From an uncultured Gammaproteobacteria bacterium (lineage in GTDB: Bacteria; Patescibacteriota; Microgenomatia; CAYQLK01): 64,000 nucleotides of DNA. The notes under the pieces are model-generated. The model had not been told where the DNA came from, made no database searches, and saw only the letters and a program-made list of their open reading frames with translations. The position numbers and the translations under genes are program-made. How positions within the stretch are numbered: the first letter of the stretch is position 1; each line of letters begins with the position of its first letter. This document shows, piece by piece, positions 3,785 through 37,406 of the stretch. The stretch spans positions 12,277 to 76,276 of the forward strand of contig CAYUKQ010000001.1 in assembly GCA_964445355.1 (NCBI GenBank), read 5' to 3'.

Positions 3785-4840
3785 CTATTTCTTTTCGCTA
3801 AGCTGATCCTCTTTGATGATTGGTGAGACACCCACAAAACCATCTAAGCTGTCAAAAACCAAAACCGGCTGAAGATATTCATCATCAAAATCAGAGAGGT
3901 AATAAGCAATATAGACTTTGCGGATAAAAACTGTCCCAGAAACAACTGGCGAAGTAATAATTCGACCTTCCCCGTTCTTCAACTTGGCAAATGCCTCCTC
4001 ACTGGTGGTTAGTGGATAGAATGAACTACTGTCTGTATCGATTTGGTTGTAGCGATAATTTACTTGTGCAATTGATTCTTTTCCGCCGACACCAGTCACC
4101 AAGATTGATACCAGTCCAGATGACTCAGACTCAATTAGTGGAATTTTTTCCAGATCTTTTCTGTGAAAACTAACTTCAACATAGTTTGCTTCTGATAGTG
4201 ATAATGCTTCTTTTAATTGAGTCACCTCCACCTTAATTGGCTTTGCAATAATCTTACTGTCATCGAAGTCTTTTTTGTATAGACTATTCTGATTAAGCCA
4301 CCCTTTAGCTATTCTGATTGCTTCTTCGTTACCTGGCGGAGACACTGAAACATATTCGGGCGAAAATATTCTCTCTGATTCTATATTAAAATTTTTGCTG
4401 ACCGTGTTGTATGTCAGTACTCGACCAGTCACTTCATCGATCCATTGGTAAACATCCCCTTCAACCAGTTGAGGTTCAGAAACAAACCCCATTCTCTCTG
4501 CCGCCACTCTCGCATTTTCCAAGGCAAGAATAGCAGGTGATTGTGTAATGAATTTATACACTTTCTCGTGGGGAGGTAAAAATCCCAAGTCACCTGATAC
4601 CGTTTCTATCTGAAAGTCGAGCTTGGAAGCATCAATATTCTTGTTTGAGAGAAAATTAACCTTTGGTATTTTACCGAACTGGCTCAATACGACATTGTCA
4701 TTTTTTGCAGGAAAATATTTATTTTTGATTGATATTGCCGCGAAAATACTAATTACAGTAACAGCAATAACAATCAGTCCGATTGTTCCAAATACTCCGA
4801 TTCTTTTGACCGCAGCTGCGGTGTCAGTTAGGCTAGACAT
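3785..4840 (-). CDS. Hypothetical membrane-anchored protein (N-terminal TM helix, large extracytoplasmic domain)
   Basis: 351-aa ORF with one N-terminal hydrophobic helix (IGVFGTIGLIVIAVTVISIFAAI). No recognisable catalytic motif. Confidence 0.55.
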   Translation of the reverse strand: MSSLTDTAAAVKRIGVFGTIGLIVIAVTVISIFAAISIKNKYFPAKNDNVVLSQFGKIPKVNFLSNKNIDASKLDFQIETVSGDLGFLPPHEKVYKFITQSPAILALENARVAAERMGFVSEPQLVEGDVYQWIDEVTGRVLTYNTVSKNFNIESERIFSPEYVSVSPPGNEEAIRIAKGWLNQNSLYKKDFDDSKIIAKPIKVEVTQLKEALSLSEANYVEVSFHRKDLEKIPLIESESSGLVSILVTGVGGKESIAQVNYRYNQIDTDSSSFYPLTTSEEAFAKLKNGEGRIITSPVVSGTVFIRKVYIAYYLSDFDDEYLQPVLVFDSLDGFVGVSPIIKEDQLSEKK

Positions 4841-14112: not shown

Positions 14113-14183
14113 GCTGCGGGACAGGGATTCGAACCCCAATACCACCCTCCAGAGGGGCGTGTCCTACCATTAGACGATCCCGC
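14113..14183 (-). tRNA. tRNA-Gln (anticodon CUG)
   Basis: Reverse complement folds as a tRNA: acceptor UGCGGGA/UCCCGCA (7 bp), D-arm GUC...GAC, anticodon stem CGCCC/GGGUG with loop CUCUGGA (anticodon CUG), T-loop GGUUCGAAUCC, discriminator G. D-arm layout parallels E. coli tRNA-Gln. Confidence 0.75.
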
Positions 14184-14238
14184 AAAAATTTTTTTTATAA
14201 CTTCTGTCTAATAGGAAGGTTCTGACTTTAGTCAGGTT

Positions 14239-14260
14239 CTTACCATTAGACGATCCCGCA
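14239..14260 (-). repeat. 22-bp direct repeat duplicating the 5' end (acceptor + D-arm) of tRNA-Gln, one mismatch. Possible att-site remnant or tRNA pseudogene fragment.
   Basis: cttaccattagacgatcccgca (14239-14260) versus cctaccattagacgatcccgca (14162-14183). The downstream sequence lacks a T-arm, so it is not a second complete tRNA. Confidence 0.6.
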
Positions 14261-14352: not shown

Positions 14353-14381
14353 TTGACAATTATACTATCCTATAGTATAAT
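14353..14381 (+). promoter_or_regulatory. Consensus sigma70-like promoter TTGACA-17-TATAAT in front of the GC-rich ORF
   Basis: TTGACA at 14353-14358, 17-nt spacer, TATAAT at 14376-14381, in AT-rich sequence. SD AAGGAAGG at 14401-14408. Confidence 0.5.
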
Positions 14382-14418
14382 TACCAACAGTTCTTTAAAA
14401 AAGGAAGGTCTGAACAAG

Positions 14419-14853
14419 TTGATCGAAACCCTCAGGAAGCCGCCCCGTGCGCTCAAGATCTACTACCTCGTCCTCGCCGCCTTCTTCGCGGTCTGGGCGG
14501 GCACAATTGCCGGGCAAGCCCCGGACAGCAACACGACCGCCGGCATCATCGCCGTCTGGTTCGGCTACGCCTTCGTTCCGGTCATCGCTCTGGCGTTCGC
14601 GACCGAGTCGCGCCGACCCGTCCTCACCCAGGTCATTCTCTGCTCGAGCGGGAGTGTACTGATCCTGGCAGGGTGGGTGATCGGATACGATTCGGTCAAC
14701 GATCCAGCGCCAATGGTCTGGTACGAGCCGATCATCTTTGTCGCAATCGCGGCGTTGATGGTCTTCCCGATGATGGTCTTCACCCTCATCTACCTCGGCA
14801 TCAGCAAGCTCGCCGGCCACTTCGGCCTCATCCCTACCTTCCTCAGAGCCTAG
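14419..14853 (+). CDS. Small 4-TM membrane protein encoded by an anomalously GC-rich (about 60%) ORF. Function unknown.
   Basis: ORF track gives 14353..14853 using a TTG inside the -35 box. The in-frame TTG at 14419, 10 nt after AAGGAAGG, coincides exactly with the jump in GC content. Four hydrophobic helices. Codon usage is GC3-rich, unlike neighbours. Confidence 0.6.
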   Translation: MIETLRKPPRALKIYYLVLAAFFAVWAGTIAGQAPDSNTTAGIIAVWFGYAFVPVIALAFATESRRPVLTQVILCSSGSVLILAGWVIGYDSVNDPAPMVWYEPIIFVAIAALMVFPMMVFTLIYLGISKLAGHFGLIPTFLRA

Positions 14854-14930
14854 GCAGCCTCACCAGGAGACTGCCAAAGCTCAAAGATCGACTAGGTCGG
14901 GAGCTAAACAAGCTCCCACCTCCCGCTTCA

Positions 14931-14968
14931 GCCCCCGCTCCAAAACCAGTTGGACGGGGGCCTTTTTT
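14931..14968 (+). terminator. Rho-independent terminator after the GC-rich ORF
   Basis: gcccccg(c)tccaa-aaccag-ttggacgggggc hairpin followed by TTTTTT. Confidence 0.7.
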
Positions 14969-17202: not shown

Positions 17203-19317
17203 ATGTCTACCCAAAAAATCCTCACCATCAAACAATTAACCAAACACTTAACCAAAATATTGTTTGTGTTTGTCTTTTTAATGTTAGGTAGCATTGCAGT
17301 TGCAAAACTCAATTCTGTTTATGCGGTTTATAGTATTAATTCTGTAACTCCAACTTGTGTTGGAACGACTTCCTCGGTCTCGGTTAATTACAGTGTTGAC
17401 GGCCCAAACGGTGCCGCAGGCACAACAGACAATCCATACAATCAATACTCGACCATGTATGATTTTAGTCAATTCTTGTCTGGTACTTATTCCAGCACTT
17501 GGAACAAAGGCGGATTAGGATTTTCTGCCGGAGTAAGTTACACAATTCTTCTTCAGGACCGCAATTTAGGCTGGCCGTCAATGAACAAAGCATCCCAGGT
17601 GTTTACAGCCCTGAATTGTCAGACACCTCCTACTATTACCTCGCCTACCAAAACATCGTTCACCACCACCGGAGCCACACTTGGGGGAAATGTTACCTCA
17701 GCCGGCAATGGTACTTGGTCAAGCAGGGGAGTATGTGTCGGACTTTCAGCTAATCCTACGACTGGTTGTACCAGCACCAGTGGAACGACTGGAGTGTTTA
17801 CTGTCGCTGTCAGTGGTCTGAGCAGCAATACTCTCTATCACTACCGAGCCTACGCAGCCAGTTCGGCTGGCACGGTTTACACTACAGACGACACCTTTAC
17901 CACGCTCAATCCAAACACCCAACCGACCGTTGTCTCCGGGCCAACACTCAGCTATCAGAACAGTCGTTTCCGAACAGGTCCTAATACAACCTGGTCTCTT
18001 ACTTTGCGAGCTGATGATGCTGAGCAAACAGGTGCGAATGCCTTATCTTGGCAGTTACGTACAGCATCCGGCGGCGGCGGCACACTTATTACCAGCGGAA
18101 CGACGACTAGCGGCCAGACCAACAATTTCGGTAGCTTTGCCTATACACAAACAGGGGTCGTTGAAGGCAGTAATACCGTCTACTTAAGAATCTATGATGG
18201 GACCGCTTGGTCAAACGATTGGTTCAGTTGGTTGTACCGCGATACCGTCAATCCGACCAGTGCAACTTCTATTTCACACTCCCCTGCTAATGTTTCCACG
18301 GATAATAACTACACTGTGACCTTCACACCCAACGATGCTGCAAGTACTAATAGCAATGAGCTTATTGGGTATGTCTACACCGGACCCAACGGTACTGGTA
18401 CATATCTTACAGGCACGTCCGCAACCAGCGGACAATCCAAGACCACCTCAACGATTACAGATACCGCTCTGGTTCAAGGAAACAATACTCGTTATCTCAG
18501 GACCTGTGATGGGGCGAATAACTGCAGTGACACAAGTTTCACAGTTATCAAAAGTAGTACGGCTTCAATATCTTCACCGACCAAGAATTCGATCACGGTT
18601 TACGGAGCAAATCTCGGTGGTAACATCACTACTGACAATGGTAATACCATAACCGGTAGGGGTGTTTGTGTCGGAGCAAGCGCCGACCCTGCTATAGGTG
18701 GAAACTGTATAGGTACAACCGGAACTACTGGAATATTTAGCGTACTTTTTACCAATCTCACCGGCGCAACGACCTACCACTACCGTGCTTACGCTACCAA
18801 CTCCGCCGGTACGGTGTATACAACAGATGACACTTTTATAACAATCACTCCGGCCACAGGATGTACATTCCCGATCTCCGGTGATGTCTCAATCAACTCC
18901 ACCTGCAACATCCCTACCAACGGACTTACCGTATCAACAACACAGTTAAGGCTTGTTGGTTCAGACACAGGCAGTATTCAAATGCTGGCTGATATGACGG
19001 TTAATCCGGGCAGCATTCTTGTTTGGGGTCCGGGAAAACAAATTGTCCGAGCTCCTGGTGTAACAATGTTTAACGCTACCGGAACACAAATTACCCAAAA
19101 ATATATCTGCCTCTATGATCCGGATTCCGATGGTGTGCCTAATGACTACATCGTCAACACTCAAGGCGGGACCGCAGTACTGCAAGACAGCTCAAGCTGT
19201 GGAACGAACTACATTCGTCCAAACTCATTGAATGCGGCATTTTTAGAATTCAATAGTGCGGTCAAAGACCTCGCTCCAGACGATGGATTGTGTTTTGACA
19301 GTGCAACATGTAATTAG
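17203..19317 (+). CDS. Large Ser/Thr/Gly-rich cell-surface protein with two internal repeats of about 90 aa (putative adhesin)
   Basis: N-terminal signal/TM (ILFVFVFLMLGSIAVA). Repeat 1 nt 17638-17907 (TSPTKTSFTTTGATLGGNVTSAGNGTWSSRGVCVGLSANP...YHYRAYAASSAGTVYTTDDTFTTL). Repeat 2 nt 18571-18846 (SSPTKNSITVYGANLGGNITTDNGNTITGRGVCVGASADP...YHYRAYATNSAGTVYTTDDTFITI). Starts 3 nt after the pilin gene. Confidence 0.65.
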   Translation: MSTQKILTIKQLTKHLTKILFVFVFLMLGSIAVAKLNSVYAVYSINSVTPTCVGTTSSVSVNYSVDGPNGAAGTTDNPYNQYSTMYDFSQFLSGTYSSTWNKGGLGFSAGVSYTILLQDRNLGWPSMNKASQVFTALNCQTPPTITSPTKTSFTTTGATLGGNVTSAGNGTWSSRGVCVGLSANPTTGCTSTSGTTGVFTVAVSGLSSNTLYHYRAYAASSAGTVYTTDDTFTTLNPNTQPTVVSGPTLSYQNSRFRTGPNTTWSLTLRADDAEQTGANALSWQLRTASGGGGTLITSGTTTSGQTNNFGSFAYTQTGVVEGSNTVYLRIYDGTAWSNDWFSWLYRDTVNPTSATSISHSPANVSTDNNYTVTFTPNDAASTNSNELIGYVYTGPNGTGTYLTGTSATSGQSKTTSTITDTALVQGNNTRYLRTCDGANNCSDTSFTVIKSSTASISSPTKNSITVYGANLGGNITTDNGNTITGRGVCVGASADPAIGGNCIGTTGTTGIFSVLFTNLTGATTYHYRAYATNSAGTVYTTDDTFITITPATGCTFPISGDVSINSTCNIPTNGLTVSTTQLRLVGSDTGSIQMLADMTVNPGSILVWGPGKQIVRAPGVTMFNATGTQITQKYICLYDPDSDGVPNDYIVNTQGGTAVLQDSSSCGTNYIRPNSLNAAFLEFNSAVKDLAPDDGLCFDSATCN

Positions 19318-19858: not shown

Positions 19859-21151
19859 ATGTCAAAACAAAGCTTGATCGAAAGCAACTTAGAGTTGCTA
19901 TATCAAAAATGCGTTTCTGCCCACGAAAAAACAAAATTTATATCAACCGTTCATCGGAGCTTTTTCTACAACGATGAACCCAAGCTGTATACGTTCATTT
20001 TGAACAGTAAAAACTCGTCCAAAAAATTCCGTACCAACGCCAGCGGCTCGGCCTGGGATGAAAAACTCGCTTTTATTAAAGGCTATATTGAAATGATAGA
20101 AAGATACGCACTGATCCCTTCAGATCAAGACCTCGATCATTTAGTTCTCTCGTCCGAGACTGGATTGCCTAAGGCAATAAAACTTAGCAAATTCATGAAA
20201 TTCTCACATAGCCAAATGATCGACAAGTTTTTTGCCCGAAAAGTCGCGACCGAGAATGACCCTTTATACTGGACTGAAGCTATTGATTTATGTGCCCGCA
20301 AAACCGTATATATTCCGGCTCAAACTGTTTTTTGTCCGTTCGGAAAAAAAGAAAAAATCATTCGCACGCCAATTTCAACGGGCGCATCAGCGGGTTTGGA
20401 CAAAAATTCAACAATAACCAGGGCAATTTTTGAAGTTCTTGAAAGAGACACGTTTATTTCATCCTATTTGGGTCGCCTTTCAGGTACGATAATTAAGATA
20501 AAAAACCCAAAAGGAGTGATCAAAGATTTACTGGACGAATTTAGCTTTTATTTACTCGAACCAACAATTATCAGATTGGACAACGATTATCATATTCCCG
20601 TCATACTGACAATTCTTACGGATCTGACTAAAAACAAGCCGGTCATTACCTTCGGACTCAAGTGTCATCCTGATCTGAACAGGGCGATTCAGGGTAGTTT
20701 GGAGGAATCATTTCATACTCGCGGATGGATGCGTGACGAATTGGCAAAATCCGATACTGTCTACATTAATTCACTAATCAAAAATATCGAACACACTTAC
20801 GAGCTCAAAGATCGCGGACTTATCTGGTCTCAACCTTTCGTTCTCAAAAACGTTGATTTTTGGCTTAATAACAAAAAAACATTTAATCTATCTCTCAAAG
20901 CAAGTTATCCAAAAATTCCATTAAATACTCTCCTTAAAAAGTTACAAGCAATCGGATTTGATATTTATCTCAAAGAACTAACTGATCCGGAGATCGCCAA
21001 ACTTGGTTTTTACGCCTGTAAGGTCATCATACCCCAAGCACAACCTCTTTACCTGGAAGAGGATTTTCAATATTTGGACACCAGCCGTATTGAAAAGATC
21101 GCAAAACATAAGATCACCAAGCTTAATACATTTTTACAACCCTTCCTATGA
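19859..21151 (+). CDS. YcaO-domain cyclodehydratase (SagD/TOMM D-protein-like), stand-alone
   Basis: N-terminal NASGSAWDEKLAFIKGYIEMIERYA and central PISTGASAGLDKNSTITRAIFEVLERDTF match the YcaO signatures (ASGxG...ERY and SNG-AxG...E--ERD). 430 aa. No fused E1-like domain. Confidence 0.75.
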   Translation: MSKQSLIESNLELLYQKCVSAHEKTKFISTVHRSFFYNDEPKLYTFILNSKNSSKKFRTNASGSAWDEKLAFIKGYIEMIERYALIPSDQDLDHLVLSSETGLPKAIKLSKFMKFSHSQMIDKFFARKVATENDPLYWTEAIDLCARKTVYIPAQTVFCPFGKKEKIIRTPISTGASAGLDKNSTITRAIFEVLERDTFISSYLGRLSGTIIKIKNPKGVIKDLLDEFSFYLLEPTIIRLDNDYHIPVILTILTDLTKNKPVITFGLKCHPDLNRAIQGSLEESFHTRGWMRDELAKSDTVYINSLIKNIEHTYELKDRGLIWSQPFVLKNVDFWLNNKKTFNLSLKASYPKIPLNTLLKKLQAIGFDIYLKELTDPEIAKLGFYACKVIIPQAQPLYLEEDFQYLDTSRIEKIAKHKITKLNTFLQPFL

Positions 21152-31704: not shown

Positions 31705-32190
31705 ATGAAATGTCCGTTCTGTTACTCAAGTTCCAGCAAGGTCATCGATAAAAGAGAGTCGGATGATAAAAGAACAACTAGAAGACGTCGGCAGTGTCTT
31801 AAGTGTTCCAAAAGATTCACGACTTTTGAACGTGTCGAGACCATTGACTTGCTTGTTGTCAAAAAAGACGGCCGACGAGAACACTTTGACCGAAATAAAC
31901 TCAGATCAGGTATCGTCAAAAGTTGCGAAAAAAGACCCGTACCTGCAGAGATGATCGAATCAACAGTCGACAAAATCGAAACAGAGCTTCGCAAGCTCAC
32001 TGGCAATGAGATCCACTCCAAGAAACTAGGCGATTTGGTAATGAAACACCTCAAAAAAGTCGATGAAGTTGCCTATATTCGTTTTGCTTCGGTCTACCGG
32101 CAATTTACTGATCTTAATGATTTTGAAAAAGAACTCGCGTCTTTAACCAATAATCTAAGAGCTCGTAAAGCCTCGACTACCAAGAACTAA
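31705..32190 (+). CDS. nrdR: Transcriptional repressor NrdR
   Basis: MKCPFCYSSSSKVIDKRESDDKRTTRRRRQCLKCSKRFTTFERVE: Zn ribbon plus ATP-cone, canonical NrdR. Confidence 0.9.
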   Translation: MKCPFCYSSSSKVIDKRESDDKRTTRRRRQCLKCSKRFTTFERVETIDLLVVKKDGRREHFDRNKLRSGIVKSCEKRPVPAEMIESTVDKIETELRKLTGNEIHSKKLGDLVMKHLKKVDEVAYIRFASVYRQFTDLNDFEKELASLTNNLRARKASTTKN

Positions 32191-32282
32191 AAAGCTGATT
32201 TTGTTTCCTGCTTAGGATAATTTTTCTACGCAGAACAAGTTGTGTCTATAAAAATAAAAGTCAAAAAAGAAAGGAAATCGAA

Positions 32283-34949
32283 ATGGCGTTGCCAAAATCA
32301 AAACTGAAGGTTAAGGATCTGCAAAAATTTGGTAAAGAAATACCCGCACCTCCAGCTGATCTTCCCGAGCCAGGCCTTTCAGAGAATGCTGCCTATATTG
32401 CCAAGACCAGATACGCTTTTCGTGACGAAAACGGTACTCCGATTGAAGGTCCTAAAGAAATGTTCTGGCGCGTAGCTTACAACATCGCCACCGCAGACCG
32501 TAATTACAATGGTAATTCCACCAGTAAAACCCTAGAAACCGCGCGCAAATTCTACAACATGATGGCCTCCCAAGAGTATATTCCCAACACTCCAACCATG
32601 GTTAATGCTGGTAAACCCAATCAGCAGCTTTCAGCCTGTTTCGTTTTGCCGGTTGAGGATAGTATGACTGCTATTCTCAAGACCATGAGTGATATGGCGA
32701 TGATTCACAAGAGTGGTGGCGGAACCGGATTCTCTTTCTCACGCCTCAGGCCGTACGGAGATGTCATCGGTTCGTCGCGTGGTACCACCGTTGGTCCGGT
32801 ATCGTTTATGCAAGCTTACAATGATGTAACCACCCAAATTAAACAAGGCGGTGTCAGGCGGGGAGCAAATATGGGTATCCTTCACATTACCCACCCTGAT
32901 ATTTTGAGATTTGCAGTTCACAAAGTTGATGAATTTTCTTTAACCAATTTCAATATTTCGGTCACTGTTACCGAAGATTTTATGGAGACCGTTCGTTCCG
33001 ACAGTCGCTTCATCGAAGGCGATGAAAGCCTTAATGTTGAAGAGTTAGAAGAGATCGTTTCAGAAATTAGGGCCGCACAAGCTATCAGAGATGTTGATCT
33101 GAAACTTGTTAAGGTCGAAGAGGGTGTCAAAAAACTTTACGAACTTACCAAGGCTACCCAGGAGGGTGAGGGATACGAGCTTATTAATCCGCGCACCAAT
33201 CAAGTCGCCGGCAAACTAAACGCCAAAAAAGTCTTTGACCTCATTACACGTCTTGCTTGGCAGTACGGTGATCCGGGTATGATCCTCATCGATCGGATCA
33301 ACAATTCACGCGCCAATCCCGTGCCCCGATTCGGCATGATTGAAGCAACCAATCCTTGTGGTGAACAGCCGCTCCATCCTTACGACGCGTGTACACTAGG
33401 CTCGATCAATCTTAATAAATTCCGCAAAGGCAAAACAATTGATTGGGATAGGCTAAAAGATGCGATCCATGAAAGTATTCACTTCCTGGATAATGTTTTG
33501 GATATGAATGAATATCCGCTCCCCGAGATCCATAGAACTACCAGAGCAATCAGGCGCGTAGGTTTAGGGGTGATGGGTTTTGCTGATCTGTTAGCAGGGC
33601 TCGGAATCGGTTATAACACCGATGAGGCTTTTAAAAAGGCTGAAGAGATCATGAAATTTTTCCAGGAAGAGAGTGATAATGCCTCAGAAGATCTTGCTAA
33701 GATCCGTGGCAACTTTGGTGCTTACGAAGGATCGATCTATGATGGTGTTCGCCCAATGCGCAACGGCGCAAGAACCACAATTGCTCCCACCGGTACTATC
33801 TCAATGCTGGCCGACTGTTCCAGTGGAATTGAGCCTCATTTTGCTTTAACTTATGCAAAAAATACTGTTGAAGGCAAAAGACTCTTCAATACCATTGAGG
33901 AATTTGTTAAGGCAGCCAAAAAAGAAAACATTTATTCTGACGAATTACTGGAAAAGATTCAGGACAACAAAGGTTCGGTTCAGGGGCTCAAAGAAGTGCC
34001 TGAGAGTTTGCAAAAGGTTTTTGTTGTTGCCGGGGATATTAGTCCGGAACAGCACGTCAAAATGCAGGCAGCTTTCCAGCACTATACTGACAATGCTATT
34101 AGCAAAACCATCAACTTCAATAACGACGCAACAGTAGAAGATGTGCGTAACGCTTATTGGCTAGCCTACGAACAGGGATGTAAGGGGATCACGATCTACC
34201 GCGACGGGTCACGCGACAAGCAGGTTTTGGAAACCAAAAAAGAGGATTCTTACTATGATCAATTAGCCGGTAAGAAAAAATCCGCAAACAATAGTGCTGA
34301 ACAACCGCATTTCCCGATCTTGCCGATTCGCAAACCCACGCCATCCGAAGCTTGGGGAATGCGTATCAGAAAACCTTCCGATGTCGGAAATGTTTATACA
34401 TCAGTATTCCGTAACGCCCAAAACGAACCGGTTGAAGTCTTTGTTAATATCGGAAAATCCGGCGCTTATGTTTCAGGCGCTGCAGAGGTTACGGGAAGAT
34501 TAGGGTCTCTTGCTTTGAAATACGGTGCAAGTTTGGAAGAAGTGGCTTCTGAACTGGTTGGTATCAGCTGTGGAACGCAATACGGCGTAGGCCCGAACGC
34601 AATTTATTCAGCTTTTGACGCAGTCGGTAAGTCCCTTATTGAGATTGCTACTGCCAAACAGCTTAATTTGCTTTCTCAGGATCTGATTTCTCAAGACGAA
34701 AAACCCGTTTCTGCAGACGACAATCTTTCTTCGTCCAACAGCCACACACGACCCAGCTCTGGTACGGTTGTACAAGAGTCTTTGATCAAAGAAGAGCCGT
34801 TGGCACTGGAAATTAAATCGCCTCTGGAGCACAAGGTTGTCACTCTCGATATCAACAACTCGTGTCCACAGTGTGGTAGTCCGCTCGCCTTCAAAGAAGG
34901 ATGCAAAAGCTGTATTAATCCGCTTTGCGGCTGGTCCAAATGTAGCTAA
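32283..34949 (+). CDS. nrdJ: Ribonucleoside-diphosphate reductase, class II (adenosylcobalamin-dependent), with C-terminal Zn-ribbon
   Basis: Active-site NPCGEQPL, 888 aa. C-terminal CPQCGSPLAFKEGCKSCINPLCGWSKC. Confidence 0.85.
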   Translation: MALPKSKLKVKDLQKFGKEIPAPPADLPEPGLSENAAYIAKTRYAFRDENGTPIEGPKEMFWRVAYNIATADRNYNGNSTSKTLETARKFYNMMASQEYIPNTPTMVNAGKPNQQLSACFVLPVEDSMTAILKTMSDMAMIHKSGGGTGFSFSRLRPYGDVIGSSRGTTVGPVSFMQAYNDVTTQIKQGGVRRGANMGILHITHPDILRFAVHKVDEFSLTNFNISVTVTEDFMETVRSDSRFIEGDESLNVEELEEIVSEIRAAQAIRDVDLKLVKVEEGVKKLYELTKATQEGEGYELINPRTNQVAGKLNAKKVFDLITRLAWQYGDPGMILIDRINNSRANPVPRFGMIEATNPCGEQPLHPYDACTLGSINLNKFRKGKTIDWDRLKDAIHESIHFLDNVLDMNEYPLPEIHRTTRAIRRVGLGVMGFADLLAGLGIGYNTDEAFKKAEEIMKFFQEESDNASEDLAKIRGNFGAYEGSIYDGVRPMRNGARTTIAPTGTISMLADCSSGIEPHFALTYAKNTVEGKRLFNTIEEFVKAAKKENIYSDELLEKIQDNKGSVQGLKEVPESLQKVFVVAGDISPEQHVKMQAAFQHYTDNAISKTINFNNDATVEDVRNAYWLAYEQGCKGITIYRDGSRDKQVLETKKEDSYYDQLAGKKKSANNSAEQPHFPILPIRKPTPSEAWGMRIRKPSDVGNVYTSVFRNAQNEPVEVFVNIGKSGAYVSGAAEVTGRLGSLALKYGASLEEVASELVGISCGTQYGVGPNAIYSAFDAVGKSLIEIATAKQLNLLSQDLISQDEKPVSADDNLSSSNSHTRPSSGTVVQESLIKEEPLALEIKSPLEHKVVTLDINNSCPQCGSPLAFKEGCKSCINPLCGWSKCS

Positions 34950-34966: not shown

Positions 34967-34995
34967 TTGACTTTTAGCTTCAAATCTGGTATAAT
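34967..34995 (+). promoter_or_regulatory. Consensus-like sigma70 promoter TTGACT-17-TATAAT in AT-rich DNA immediately upstream of a GC-rich ORF
   Basis: TTGACT 34967-34972, 17-nt spacer, TATAAT 34990-34995. SD GGAGG 35021-35025. TTG start 35032. Confidence 0.5.
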
Positions 34996-35031
34996 TACCC
35001 TTAAGAAAATTAACATTTCTGGAGGTTAGTT

Positions 35032-35370
35032 TTGCCTGCTCATACACTCCCAATCTATCAGGTTCAGTGTCTTTCGGGACACGTATACAACGCCGCAGTT
35101 GGTTCTCAGCTCGAGGCTGACTGCAAGCAGCGCGAGGAGGACGGCTTCATTGACGCCTTAATTCTGCCTCATGACGATTGCGAATATTGTCTCCAAATCG
35201 CAATCAAGAGCGCAATTCAAAACTACCGCGCACTTTGCGGAGATTGGGGTTGCGTTGGCGACTGTGGTGCCAAGTCTCCCGATCAATGTCGGGGAGCAGA
35301 CGACATCGATAAATATCGATCTTTGCTCACGGCCGCCGACAAGCGCAATCGTCTTCCCGAGACCGCCTAA
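35032..35370 (+). CDS. Small acidic Cys-rich protein (8 Cys), GC-rich ORF, unknown function
   Basis: 112 aa. Cys at CxxC (DDCEYC) and CGDWGCVGDCG clusters. About 60% GC versus 35-40% background. TTG start 7 nt after GGAGG. Confidence 0.55.
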   Translation: MPAHTLPIYQVQCLSGHVYNAAVGSQLEADCKQREEDGFIDALILPHDDCEYCLQIAIKSAIQNYRALCGDWGCVGDCGAKSPDQCRGADDIDKYRSLLTAADKRNRLPETA

Positions 35371-35383
35371 AAAGTTCGCACAT

Positions 35384-35420
35384 CTCCCCGCCTTAAAAAA
35401 GCGGGGAATTTTTTTTAAAA
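35384..35420 (+). terminator. Rho-independent terminator
   Basis: ccccgc-cttaaaaaa-gcgggg hairpin followed by a T-run (aattttttttt). Confidence 0.65.
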
Positions 35421-35494
35421 AATTTGACAATATTTACAAATATCCTATAATCCGAGACGGACTTTGTACCTTCACAAGGAGACAGTTTACGTCA

Positions 35495-36496
35495 ATGGCA
35501 AACACCTCAAGAGATTTGTGGGCAACTGCCCGCGCCATGGTCGAGCGACCCAAGGTCATCCTTGCGGCCGATGAATCGACCGGAACAATGGGCGACCGGC
35601 TCAGCTCGATCGGAGTGGAGAACACTCTCGAAGCCCGAACTGCATTCCGTCGCCTTCTCTTCTCAGCCCTGGGAATCGAAGGATACGTCGGGGCAACCAT
35701 CCTCTTCGAGGAAACGCTCGCCGATCCCGAACTGGTCGAACTTTTGACCAGCAAGGGTATCATTCCGGTGGTTAAGATCGACCGGGGGCTGGTCGAGTAT
35801 GGGGCTAAGGGCGAAAAGATCGTCCGCGGCTTCGACACATCGGAACTGATCCCGCGTCTCGAGCAGTACGCCAGGCAGGGTGCGAGAGCAACCAAATTCC
35901 GCAGCCTTTTCGGTATCACTGACGATGCTGATCAGCTACCGACACGCGAGTGCATCGCACTCAATGCCTTCGCTCAGGCTCAGTTTGCCAAGCTGAGCCA
36001 GGAGTTCGGCATGGTACCGATGGTCGAGCCCGAACTCGATTTCAAAGGTGCTCATGACATCCGGGTTTGCGAGGAGGCCTCGGACGAAGTGCTCGAGGCT
36101 GTTTTCGAGCAGCTCATGATCTTTGGGGTCGATCCGTCCGGCATGATCCTCAAGCCGTCAATGATCACCTCCGGCCAGAGCGCCCAGAGCCGCGCTTCAG
36201 CAAGCGAAGTTGCGACTCGGACCTTAAGCACGATGCTTCGATGGGTCCCGAATGTGATCCCAGGCATTGCTTTCTTGTCTGGCGGTCAGTCGGACGAGGA
36301 AGCCGATGAGAATTTGGCCGCCATCGCCCGGCATGGTCGCGAACAGATGTCGCCGTACAGGTTCACTGCCTCCTTCGGCCGTGGACTTCAACGCCGCGCA
36401 CTCAAAGCGTGGGGAGGCCAAGAGGCAAACACCGAAACGGCCCAGCAGGTGTTCATCGACAAGTGCCGCGAAACCAGCGAAGCTAGCGTCGCCTAA
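35495..36496 (+). CDS. fba: Fructose-bisphosphate aldolase, class I (Schiff-base type), GC-rich ORF
   Basis: ILAADESTGTMGDRL, KIDRG (Lys-containing strand), ILKPSMI and FLSGGQS motifs of class I FBA. ATG 35495 preceded by AAGGAG. The ORF-track ORF 35171..36496 begins upstream, inside the previous gene, terminator and promoter. Own near-consensus promoter TTGACA-16-TATAAT at 35424-35451. Confidence 0.75.
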   Translation: MANTSRDLWATARAMVERPKVILAADESTGTMGDRLSSIGVENTLEARTAFRRLLFSALGIEGYVGATILFEETLADPELVELLTSKGIIPVVKIDRGLVEYGAKGEKIVRGFDTSELIPRLEQYARQGARATKFRSLFGITDDADQLPTRECIALNAFAQAQFAKLSQEFGMVPMVEPELDFKGAHDIRVCEEASDEVLEAVFEQLMIFGVDPSGMILKPSMITSGQSAQSRASASEVATRTLSTMLRWVPNVIPGIAFLSGGQSDEEADENLAAIARHGREQMSPYRFTASFGRGLQRRALKAWGGQEANTETAQQVFIDKCRETSEASVA

Positions 36497-36510
36497 CACA
36501 AGTACCAGCT

Positions 36511-36548
36511 ACCCGTCCCGGATTTTATCCAGGGCGGGTTTTTTTTAT
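36511..36548 (+). terminator. Probable rho-independent terminator after fba
   Basis: Imperfect GC hairpin (acccgtcccgg...ccagggcgggt) followed by T9. Confidence 0.5.
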
Positions 36549-36635
36549 AACCAAAAATCAATCAGATTAAGAATTACACCACACGCTTACAAGCCGCACC
36601 GATTACCCAACAAAACCAAATTCATTTGAAGAACT

Positions 36636-37406
36636 CTAGTCGTTAGTTGCGTTCTGAGTTTTTGCTATCCTTTTTTTGGTCAACTCAACATGAACAAAAA
36701 CAACAATCCTCACAACAATTGCAAACACTCCAAACCCCATCGCGAATCTGCCCATAAATCGCTTAATAACCAATACACCATCCTTAGTCTCCGCCAAGTA
36801 GAAGTGAAGCAGTACAAACGCTAATGCTAAATAAGACATCGTTTGCAATAGTTTCCATTTTTTCGCCCCCATTATTTCCATTGATTTTTTATTCGAAGTA
36901 ATAGTGATCAAAAAAAGCAGTATTGTTGCGACCATACCTGCCCAAACCGGCGCGACTTTAGGGTTGCTAAAACTCAAAGCTGCCACAAAATCCCATTGAT
37001 AATATTTGTAGATAACCAAGATAAAATGTGTCAGTGCAATAAAAAATGACGAAATCCCCCAAAATTTTCGATGCACCTTAACGAAGTTAAAAAATTTGAT
37101 GTATTTTGCCAAAGGTCCGACCAGAAGTGTGATTGATAATAGTGTTATTGACCACAACCCAGTGGTTTTTATCATTTCACTGGTAGTGAATTTAAATTTG
37201 TTATAAGTTACAAAATACAACACAAAAACAGCTAACGGAATCAAAAAATGATAGAACCAAATATCAATTCTTCTTCTTGTTGTCTGGTTGTCAAAATCTG
37301 GGTGAGGCAGATGTTCCACTGGGTTAATATTCTGAATCGTTTGAGGTTGAGAGGGTAGTGACTGAGCGACCGGACTTGATTGTGACTCTACTTCCATTGA
37401 AATCAA
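36636..37406 (-). CDS. Polytopic membrane protein, possibly ferric-reductase-like TM domain (YedZ/MsrQ-like heme-binding)
   Basis: 6 TM helices with conserved His in TM segments (VHRKFWGISSFFIALTHF, LLHFYLAE). Assignment tentative. Confidence 0.45.
   Translation of the reverse strand: MISMEVESQSSPVAQSLPSQPQTIQNINPVEHLPHPDFDNQTTRRRIDIWFYHFLIPLAVFVLYFVTYNKFKFTTSEMIKTTGLWSITLLSITLLVGPLAKYIKFFNFVKVHRKFWGISSFFIALTHFILVIYKYYQWDFVAALSFSNPKVAPVWAGMVATILLFLITITSNKKSMEIMGAKKWKLLQTMSYLALAFVLLHFYLAETKDGVLVIKRFMGRFAMGFGVFAIVVRIVVFVHVELTKKRIAKTQNATND

Follow-up and report, generated by a model that had tools for sequence, protein, structure and literature searches.

How could two genes with the composition of a GC-rich genome come to lie, each enclosed by control signals of an AT-rich type, within a stretch of DNA that is otherwise poor in GC? 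The question is raised by positions 34967 to 36548 of the 64,000-nucleotide stretch of contig CAYUKQ010000001.1 that was analysed, referred to below as the window, whose overall GC content is 39.4%, and in which two consecutive open reading frames (ORFs) encode a small acidic protein with eight cysteines (the Cys ORF) and a class I fructose-1,6-bisphosphate aldolase (FBA). A preliminary description had considered this mosaic of foreign ORFs and native-like control regions to be unusual, since the simple transfer of a two-gene block from a GC-rich donor ought to bring donor-type intergenic DNA with it. The reading that we consider probable is that of an old foreign acquisition, inherited with host-type signals, with occasional recombination and with a slow decay of its composition. 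In other words, these would be two ordinary genes, each with its own transcription and both foreign in ancestry, which an ancestor of the AT-rich lineage acquired long ago and which have been inherited since then at a fixed site downstream of nrdR-nrdJ, and their GC-rich coding composition would be a long-lived state and not the fresh signature of a donor. The features on which the argument is built are as follows:

34967 to 34995, plus strand: promoter P1 of the Cys ORF, TTGACT, a 17-nt spacer and a TG-extended TATAAT (consensus scan, 11/12 matches)
35021 to 35025, plus strand: Shine-Dalgarno (SD) sequence GGAGG, 6 nt 5′ of the TTG start of the Cys ORF (read from the sequence)
35032 to 35370, plus strand: small acidic 8-Cys protein, 112 aa, TTG start (ORF listing, homologues)
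35385 to 35416, plus strand: intrinsic terminator of the Cys ORF, a 7-bp G+C-rich stem and then U8 (folding, -13.2 kcal/mol, z -3.0)
35424 to 35451, plus strand: promoter P2 of the FBA gene, a perfect TTGACA, a 16-nt spacer and TATAAT (12/12 matches)
35476 to 35481, plus strand: SD sequence AAGGAG, in the 43-nt aldolase leader (read from the sequence)
35495 to 36496, plus strand: class I (Schiff-base) fructose-1,6-bisphosphate aldolase, 333 aa, ATG start, third-codon-position GC (GC3) 0.68 (Pfam, NCBIfam)
36511 to 36547, plus strand: intrinsic terminator of the FBA gene, then U8 (folding, -18.9 kcal/mol, z -3.9)

The contrast in composition is a property of the coding sequences. The FBA ORF has 58.8% GC (0.62, 0.46 and 0.68 at the three codon positions) and the Cys ORF 53.1%, with a GC3 of 0.53, so that the figure of about 60% first given for both holds for the aldolase and was overstated for its neighbour; in the 52 other ORFs of the window GC3 has a mean of 0.354, a standard deviation (sd) of 0.048 and a maximum of 0.45, which places the FBA 6.9 sd and the Cys ORF 3.7 sd above them. 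A fine GC profile shows that these two plus-strand ORFs account for the rise in GC, with AT-rich DNA around them: the local profile stands at 0.51-0.54 at 35050-35350, falls to about 0.41 near 35350-35500, reaches 0.55-0.63 at 35500-36550 and then drops to 0.30-0.40, the steps being sharp and coinciding with start and stop codons and functional signals. The three spacers, at 0.29, 0.36 and 0.41 GC against 0.337 in the pooled intergenic DNA of the window, are host-like, as had been described, and the two ORFs are foreign in composition. In its amino acids the FBA is like a GC-rich homologue and unlike the native genes of the window (Ala 12%, Arg 7.5% and Lys 3.3%, against 6.6%, 4.2% and 7.0% in native genes), and its codon choice departs from that of the host to a similar degree (ATC 89% against 26%, TTC 88% against 25%, CAG 87% against 32%, AAG 73% against 20%); no gene for a ribosomal protein is present among those ORFs of the window that were scanned with Pfam. 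The marks by which recently acquired islands are recognised, an atypical base composition and an atypical codon usage, are present in the FBA and Cys ORFs, and this strong contrast with the host, together with the existence of GC-rich bacteria that carry related FBAs, would agree with a recent transfer of the two genes as a block from a high-GC donor, native promoters having been captured or having evolved later. The sharp steps at the ORF boundaries would also agree with an assembly chimera or a contamination, in which GC-rich reads were joined into an AT-rich contig.

The control regions answer the first part of the question. The promoters, SD sequences and terminators given above bear out what had been described for both genes, the two terminators, missed by a simple consensus scan, being shown by folding. 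Each gene would form a putative transcription unit with a sigma-70 promoter and an intrinsic terminator, the signals of which are conserved in orthologous loci (numbered L001 onwards below): a five-way nucleotide alignment shows conserved blocks at P1 and its leader, at the terminator of the Cys ORF, at P2 and at the FBA leader, SD included. P1 is kept in L001, L003, L004 and L006, and its leader, AAGAAAATTAACAyyTCnGGAGGTT, is near-invariant across five loci; the terminator of the Cys ORF, CCCCGC...GCGGGG with its T-run, is kept in every aligned orthologous locus; the P2 elements ATTTGACAATAnTT..AATAnCCTATAAT, as well as TTCACAAGGAGA in the FBA leader and its distance to the ATG, are kept in L001, L003 and L006, the P2 block of the alignment reading ATTTGACAATAnTT...CCTATAAT; and L001 has an equivalent hairpin and T-run 3′ of its aldolase gene. 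The spacers of 82 and 124 nt contain only the hairpin and U-run of a terminator, a tract of A/T, the two promoter hexamers (-35 and -10) and a leader of 36-43 nt with its SD, and because they are filled by conserved, intrinsically AT-rich expression signals, no neutral donor-type DNA is to be expected in them. What had seemed an unusual mosaic, a foreign ORF behind a native control region, is the expected look of an old, fixed acquisition.

Near-consensus promoters are, moreover, the local norm in this window. The scan of its whole length found nine sites with at least 11/12 matching positions, against 3.5 ± 2.3 in shuffles, all of them on the coding strand and most of them 3-55 nt upstream of genes (such as those for an RRM protein, Lon, an H+-PPase and GreA). 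Only two promoters in the window are perfect, P2 and that of an ORF near 14.4 kb, and both stand ahead of GC-rich ORFs; the promoter of the remaining GC-rich ORF, that of the Cys protein, matches at 11/12 positions and is TG-extended. As for regulatory hairpins, both leaders fold no better than shuffles (z -0.6 and -1.4), and Rfam recognised no family in the window locus or in L006, a lone ‘mir-133’ match at E 0.09 being noise.

The second part of the question, that of age, is answered by the neighbourhood of the two genes, which is bounded as follows:

31705 to 34949, plus strand: NrdR (31705-32190) and the class II ribonucleotide reductase (RNR) NrdJ (32283-34949), upstream neighbours and left anchor (Pfam)
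36636 to 37406, minus strand: ferric-reductase-like membrane protein, right anchor (PF01794)

The homologous loci, found by exact-sequence look-up, come from two NCBI metagenome-assembled genomes (L003, GCA_964426075.1; L006, GCA_964404855.1), from Logan assemblies of five runs and from ENA and JGI contigs. The order of NrdR and NrdJ is the same in L001, L003, L004 and L006, the L016 contig holding only the 3′ end of the RNR gene, and the ferric-reductase neighbour is seen in L001, L006, L011 and L016, at times with one extra gene between. The series NrdR, NrdJ, (Cys ORF), FBA and, further on, ferric reductase, Lit, LGT and Lon is found in L001/L002 (two Logan runs) and L006, and partially in L003, L004, L011 and L016; the longest loci follow the window from an RRM protein, a polyprenyl synthase, an FeS-assembly protein, NrdR, class II RNR, (Cys ORF) and aldolase to the ferric-reductase-like protein, Lit, LGT, Lon, a DUF87 ATPase and the H+-PPase. 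With the exception of L004, a near-identical strain, the flanking proteins are 84-94% identical to those of the window, and the identity of the flanks at four-fold degenerate sites is 0.26-0.41 for most pairs, that is, saturated; the related loci therefore represent different species and not the copies of one genome. Since the site, promoters, leaders and terminator are the same in these diverged relatives, the acquisition predates their divergence, and since the same arrangement recurs in independent assemblies, both misassembly and recent import can be excluded as its origin.

A chimera, which the preliminary description had named as something that would undo its reading and which we hold to be next to impossible, would have had to produce the same junctions in at least seven different samples and pipelines (GCA_964426075.1, GCA_964404855.1, SRR26372210, SRR26372211, SRR14932482 and DRR804573 from Logan, and ERZ27247785 from ENA), at boundaries that fall on start and stop codons and functional signals. 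The recent transfer of a block, which is very improbable, is at odds with a module, an exact site and control signals that are common to relatives at the species to genus level, with a best FBA outside the clade that is only 48-50% identical, and with the fact that relatives of the Cys protein with at least 65% identity were found only at this locus. A recent island would also be absent from the same site in close relatives, and this one is present in L001, L003, L004, L006, L011 and L016; between 34800 and 36800 there are no integrase or transposase genes, no flanking direct repeats (the repeats are only short chance matches) and no tRNA target.

With regard to the provenance of the aldolase, a neighbour-joining (NJ) tree of 61 FBA sequences, midpoint-rooted and without support values, places the FBAs of AT-rich genomes in one clade, apart from all other matches, the next relatives beyond this clade being only 45-54% identical. 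The clade is made up of two groups, a Curtissbacteria-type group (P0001-P0010 and the window) and a smaller one (P0011, P0012, P0013, P0039), whose loci L005, L009 and L010 are syntenic (DUF87 ATPase, aldolase and 5′-3′ exonuclease follow one another in L005 and L010), their aldolase genes standing at 54-61% GC and the flanks at 38-42%. Just outside the clade, the two relatives that were checked (48% identity) belong to genomes of uniformly 56% and 67% GC, the aldolase matching its neighbours, and a scan of GTDB genomes with the FBA protein gave one locus only, at 52% identity. On these sequence comparisons a foreign, GC-rich ancestry of the FBA is plausible, and the acquisition predates the split of the two AT-rich groups. 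With respect to a viral origin, neither the FBA protein nor the Cys-family alignment matched IMG/VR, and a tblastn search of two Cys-family members against 50,697 phage records gave no match.

The host lineage is probably Candidatus Curtissbacteria (Microgenomates, candidate phyla radiation, CPR), and the gene content of the window fits CPR, with aminoacyl-tRNA synthetases, SecA, a type IV pilus ATPase and platform protein, RelA/SpoT, Lon and an H+-PPase. In CPR the FBA is patchy (Jaffe et al. 2020, PMC7304191), most members having a class II enzyme and some (Kaiserbacteria, Woesebacteria) a class I enzyme, and lateral transfer has shaped its distribution (PMC7304191). The window FBA fits this picture of class I aldolases in Microgenomates relatives that are patchy and laterally transferred; the lateral acquisition of a class I FBA in CPR is an already published phenomenon to which the window gene adds a case, and in the library searched no paper combines ‘Curtissbacteria’ and ‘aldolase’. 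What distinguishes the window clade from known class I FBAs is, besides its low identity to those outside, that it forms a branch of its own, found so far in AT-rich genomes only, and that throughout this branch it has kept a GC-rich coding composition.

In the second group, in addition, some 200 nt of conserved leader separate a sigma-70-like promoter from the start codon (L005:9735-9990, L010:3240-3505, L009:1790-2010), with an invariant ACATTCGTGATGAnnGTGATGG, then a short hairpin and T-run, and then CTTCCATCAC. This leader resembles a terminator/antiterminator attenuator or an element of the riboswitch type; at E ≤ 1 it matched no Rfam family, and it is absent from the 43-nt aldolase leader of the window.

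During this long residence the aldolase would have been swapped at least once between species of the lineage by recombination. In the flanks L003 and L006 are nearest to each other (96-99% aa identity), followed by the window (89-94%), with L001 furthest out (84-89%), and the Cys ORF follows this order. The aldolase, unlike the Cys ORF, is closest between L001 and L006 (87% identity, dS 0.59, four-fold identity 0.64), though their flanks are saturated; the aldolases of L003 and L006 are only 84% identical, and that of the window is 70-73% identical to those of L001, L003 and L006. L001 and L006, and only these two loci, also carry, between the terminator of the Cys ORF and P2, an insertion at least about 130 nt long (L001:9795-9925, L006:10340-10700), which opens with a decayed duplicate of P2, ATTTGACAAnnGCnACnAATAT, and continues with about 100 conserved nt (…CGCAGGGCGTAG…AAACAAAATGGGGACCC…GTGACG…GCGAGTAACTATAA); the L006 copy, the only one searched, has no match in Rfam. 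Most simply, this can be read as a single event of homologous replacement, by which the L001 lineage received the aldolase unit as an allele from an L006-like lineage, with a crossover between the two genes. Around both genes extends a zone of plasticity, where a GDSL lipase, hypothetical ORFs of 94 and 147 aa, PMT_2 and a carbamoyltransferase come and go.

The conflict between the FBA tree and the flanks, as well as the variable gene content between NrdJ and the Cys ORF and after the FBA, might lead one to suppose a recurrent re-import from some GC-rich reservoir, for example the GC-rich host of an episymbiotic CPR cell, which each time would have reset the composition. We hold this to be improbable, given that every FBA of at least 51% identity whose DNA was examined lies in an AT-rich genome, that among 5.8 billion proteins no copy from a GC-rich genome was found closer than 48%, that the only detectable swap is the one between the AT-rich relatives L001 and L006, and that the synonymous divergence of the FBA between the window and L006 equals that of the flanks, as under vertical descent.

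If the acquisition is old and inherited, there remains the matter of its composition. In the amelioration model of Lawrence and Ochman atypical composition is said to mark recent arrivals and to decay at about the synonymous rate. The window FBA resembles acquired genes of that type in its atypical GC, GC3, codons and amino acids and in its affinity to GC-rich bacteria; it differs from them in that no mobility genes or flanking repeats accompany the module, and from the expectation in that diverged species share the anomaly at a single site and its decay, by a rough estimate, is about ten times slower. The GC3 of the aldolase is 0.67-0.69 in L004, 0.68 in the window, 0.66 in L016, 0.62 in L003 and L006, 0.60 in L001 and 0.58 in L011, and that of the Cys ORF lies at 0.53-0.61 in every locus; in the flanking genes it is 0.29-0.53 and tracks each genome, and the aldolase GC3 is unrelated to host GC. 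Between the window and L006 the identity at four-fold sites is 0.41 for the aldolase and 0.40 for the RNR, which corresponds to about 1.7 substitutions per site since the split, and under a two-state neutral model with a host equilibrium of about 0.35 the excess GC3 would be expected to shrink by about e^-1.9 per lineage. Such a decay of the aldolase GC3 would have had to start from an ancestral value above 1, which is impossible.

The direction of the changes points the same way. When polarised synonymous changes are pooled over five terminal branches, 102 go from G or C to A or T (S>W) and 63 in the opposite sense (W>S), an S>W proportion of 0.62, to be compared with the 0.77 predicted from the substitution spectrum of the RNR (p 7e-6) and with the 0.50 of strict stationarity (p 0.003). 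The equilibrium GC3 that follows from the rates per site is about 0.5 for the aldolase and about 0.34 for the adjacent RNR, and by a rough estimate each lineage has undergone a net loss in GC3 of about 0.03 over a dS/2 of about 0.5. The aldolase would be losing GC, but, on a semi-quantitative comparison of sequences, at roughly a tenth of the rate to be expected from neutral amelioration.

Such behaviour is not confined to the two genes. The preliminary description had extended the pattern to an island at 14.4 kb, and the extension holds for the ORF at 14419-14853:

14353 to 14968, plus strand: third cassette of the same kind (promoter scan, folding, composition)

It begins with a perfect TTGACA-17-TATAAT promoter at 14353-14381, followed by the SD AAGGAAGG, by an ORF at 14419-14853 that encodes a membrane-like protein of 144 aa with a TTG start and a GC3 of 0.79, and by a terminator at 14931-14968; L017 has the same site and signals, with a protein that is 82% identical, a GC3 of 0.81 and flanks of 0.35-0.47. 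An exact 11-mer, GTATAATTACC, formed by the -10 hexamer and its flanks, is common to P1 (34989-34999) and to this promoter (14375-14385), and both ORFs behind the GTATAATTACC promoters have a TTG start and a leader of 36-37 nt. The cassette adjoins a tRNA-Gln(CTG) gene (14113-14184, minus strand), the 5′ end of which, CCATTAGACGATCCCGCA, is duplicated about 60 nt away (about 14243-14260), within a partial tRNA-like remnant just upstream of the cassette; the duplicate is also found in L017, and it may be what an old integration at the tRNA left behind. There are, then, three such ORFs among the approximately 57 of the window, all stable in relatives, which only partly makes these mosaics common, as they would have to be if they were to speak for a codon-level bias in place of an acquisition.

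It might be supposed that the GC-richness is actively maintained, whether through weak synonymous selection (for mRNA stability or structure, or for the decoding of transcripts that are strongly expressed) or through GC-biased gene conversion accompanying the recombination of the cassettes. This explanation, which extends the reading of an old inherited acquisition and does not exclude it, is in our opinion a serious possibility, though one of rather less than even weight. It would account for a GC3 that is stationary at 0.58-0.69, independently of host GC3, across lineages about 1.7 or more synonymous substitutions per site apart, and for the difference in equilibrium between the FBA and the adjacent RNR; against this, a net S>W excess of 1.6:1 persists, and the contrast could be inflated by parsimony bias and saturation. 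The same stasis is seen in the second FBA lineage, which lies at a different site (L005, L009, L010), and in the 14.4-kb cassette, there is evidence of recombination for the FBA, and the three GC-rich ORFs carry the three best promoters of the window; but the native genes for the RRM protein, GreA and the H+-PPase, which have near-consensus promoters too, show C3 values of 0.14-0.19 and GC3 values of 0.30-0.37, so that the GC-rich codons are not those preferred by the host, and between L003 and L006 the dS of the FBA is 1.03, against 0.74-1.09 in the flanks, with no strong synonymous constraint visible. Translational selection for host-preferred codons was considered and rejected, as native genes with near-consensus promoters have no bias towards codons ending in C or G and have ordinary third positions. 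The further proposal that all three cassettes with strong predicted promoters, those of the aldolase, the 8-Cys protein and the membrane protein, are held at a GC-rich equilibrium over long times is a tentative one, and we regard it as doubtful.

To return to the old acquisition with slow decay, several points weigh against it. Most pairs of loci are near dS saturation and the lineages are a handful, the amelioration-rate argument being semi-quantitative for this reason; the three-taxon parsimony by which changes were polarised is biased with distant outgroups, although the bias should inflate S>W in GC-rich genes, making the contrast with the RNR conservative. The foreign origin is drawn from composition and from the midpoint-rooted NJ tree without support, no donor having been identified, and the Curtissbacteria label derives from one source name in one FBA cluster (MBP6980038.1) and from the CPR-like gene content. 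Finally, L004 (Logan SRR14932482), whose aldolase is 98% identical, has a 59-bp deletion at 4755-4765, which corresponds to 35448-35506 of the window and leaves the -10 hexamer short of its last four bases and the aldolase gene without its leader and SD, its ATG and its first four codons; the gene may be dispensable in some strains, or the L004 assembly may be faulty.

As to what the aldolase would do, its assignment to class I, already made in the preliminary description, is well founded. The protein matches Pfam PF00274 from residue 8 to 332 (E 4.5e-86, 289 bits, cutoff 22.2) and the NCBIfam equivalog NF033379 (FrucBisAld_I) with 319.7 bits (cutoff 250), and solved plant, parasite and mammalian class I aldolases match it at E 1e-65 to 1e-51, the identity to solved eukaryotic enzymes being about 35-40%. 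In the alignment to 6rng_A the segments ILAADES, vKiDrG (K(I/V)D), tKfR, VEPE, iLKPsM, LSGGQS and SFGRgLQ all align, with the Schiff-base Lys in the ILKPSM motif and the catalytic Asp, Lys, Glu, Lys, Ser and Arg motifs present; in rabbit numbering these presumably correspond to the Schiff-base K229 (LKPNM) and its partners D33, K107, K146, E187, S271 and R303. The window FBA is like the rest of its family in this full-length match and in these motifs. A dN/dS of about 0.1 in the unsaturated L003-L006 pair indicates purifying selection, and from family membership, catalytic motifs and selection it is most likely a working Schiff-base enzyme. Its expression would be constitutive and strong, and it would act in glycolysis or gluconeogenesis, at the aldol step.

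The Cys protein is the product of a real gene under selection and belongs to an undescribed small Cys-rich family. Its close homologues form six clusters of 65-100% identity among 5.8 billion proteins; the eight cysteines first noted in the window protein (C13, C31, C50, C53, C69, C74, C78 and C86) are invariant in its orthologues; and its dN/dS is about 0.19 in the unsaturated L003-L006 pair. Four loci have TTG as the start codon; in L001 it is CTG, and there the ORF was overlooked by gene callers. There is no match in Pfam, NCBIfam or PHROGs (PHROGs scores lie only above E 0.01), no PDB sequence match at E below 0.04 and no informative structural match for the model described below, that is, no significant profile or fold match to a curated Cys-rich or Zn-finger family or to a solved structure. 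A profile search of 1.84 billion cluster representatives nevertheless recovered 116 remote relatives at E ≤ 1e-3, most of them of 60-130 aa, with the N-terminal signature Y-x-VQC-x2-GHV-x6-GS-x-LE-x2-C-x2-R-x3-G-x-LDAL-x6-EC-x2-C, often followed by a second module, Cys-x4-C-x(n)-C-x(n)-C; a metagenome scan with the Cys alignment gave just two short loci. With the deeper family alignment as input, the AlphaFold (AF2) model has a pLDDT of 86 and a pTM of 0.75 and consists of strands at 10-13, 18-20 and 43-45 and helices at 26-36, 51-69 and 88-106, where a core of beta-hairpin, helix and strand carries C13, C31 and C50xxC53, and a loop C69-x4-C-x3-C-x7-C86 lies between the two long helices. Small size, invariant cysteines that include a CxxC at the N-terminus of a helix, and a modelled core of beta-hairpin and helix are shared with the general class of Cys4 proteins of Zn-ribbon or treble-clef-like type and CxxC redox proteins. 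Judging from the eight invariant cysteines and the topology of the model, the protein likely binds a metal (Zn or Fe-S) or acts in redox.

A distant family member, P0160 (in L020), lies amid small hypothetical genes and adjoins neither an aldolase nor an RNR gene, for which reason the pairing of Cys ORF and aldolase is lineage-specific. That gene, the first in a run of five small hypothetical ORFs that murD and an ABC transporter gene enclose (L020:6001-7952), has itself 63% GC and a GC3 of 0.76 in a genome of 53.5% GC, being again richer than its neighbours. Directly upstream of the 8-Cys gene, the class II RNR of the window has a Cys-rich C-terminal tail, CPQCGSPLAFKEGCKSCINPLCGWSKCS (34850-34949), and a functional link between the RNR and the 8-Cys protein, for instance as a reductant partner, is conceivable.

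Elsewhere in the window, an ORF of 704 aa at 17203-19317 has no Pfam match and a GC2 of 0.55, against about 0.35 in other ORFs, which suggests a compositionally biased, low-complexity protein; a protein with a YcaO domain (PF02624, E 2.7e-39) is encoded at 19859-21151, in a reduced, CPR-like genome.

In summary, the locus is a well-supported example of a CPR lineage that acquired a class I enzyme for the aldolase step and fixed it under a promoter that is predicted to be very strong, and it brings to light an unnamed small family with eight or four cysteines, of at least 116 clusters at 50% identity, that now has a confident structural model. In this group compositional outliers are unreliable markers of recent transfer or of contamination, and the trimming of GC-deviant segments during binning or decontamination would wrongly drop a genuine, conserved gene of central metabolism. 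The slow amelioration of the aldolase, if it holds under proper models, would be a tractable case of a gene-specific base-composition equilibrium in bacteria; and if the three cassettes are indeed held at such an equilibrium, a gene-specific force, be it selection at synonymous sites or biased gene conversion linked to exchange, would override the genome-wide pressure towards AT, and atypical composition would not date transfers in these organisms.

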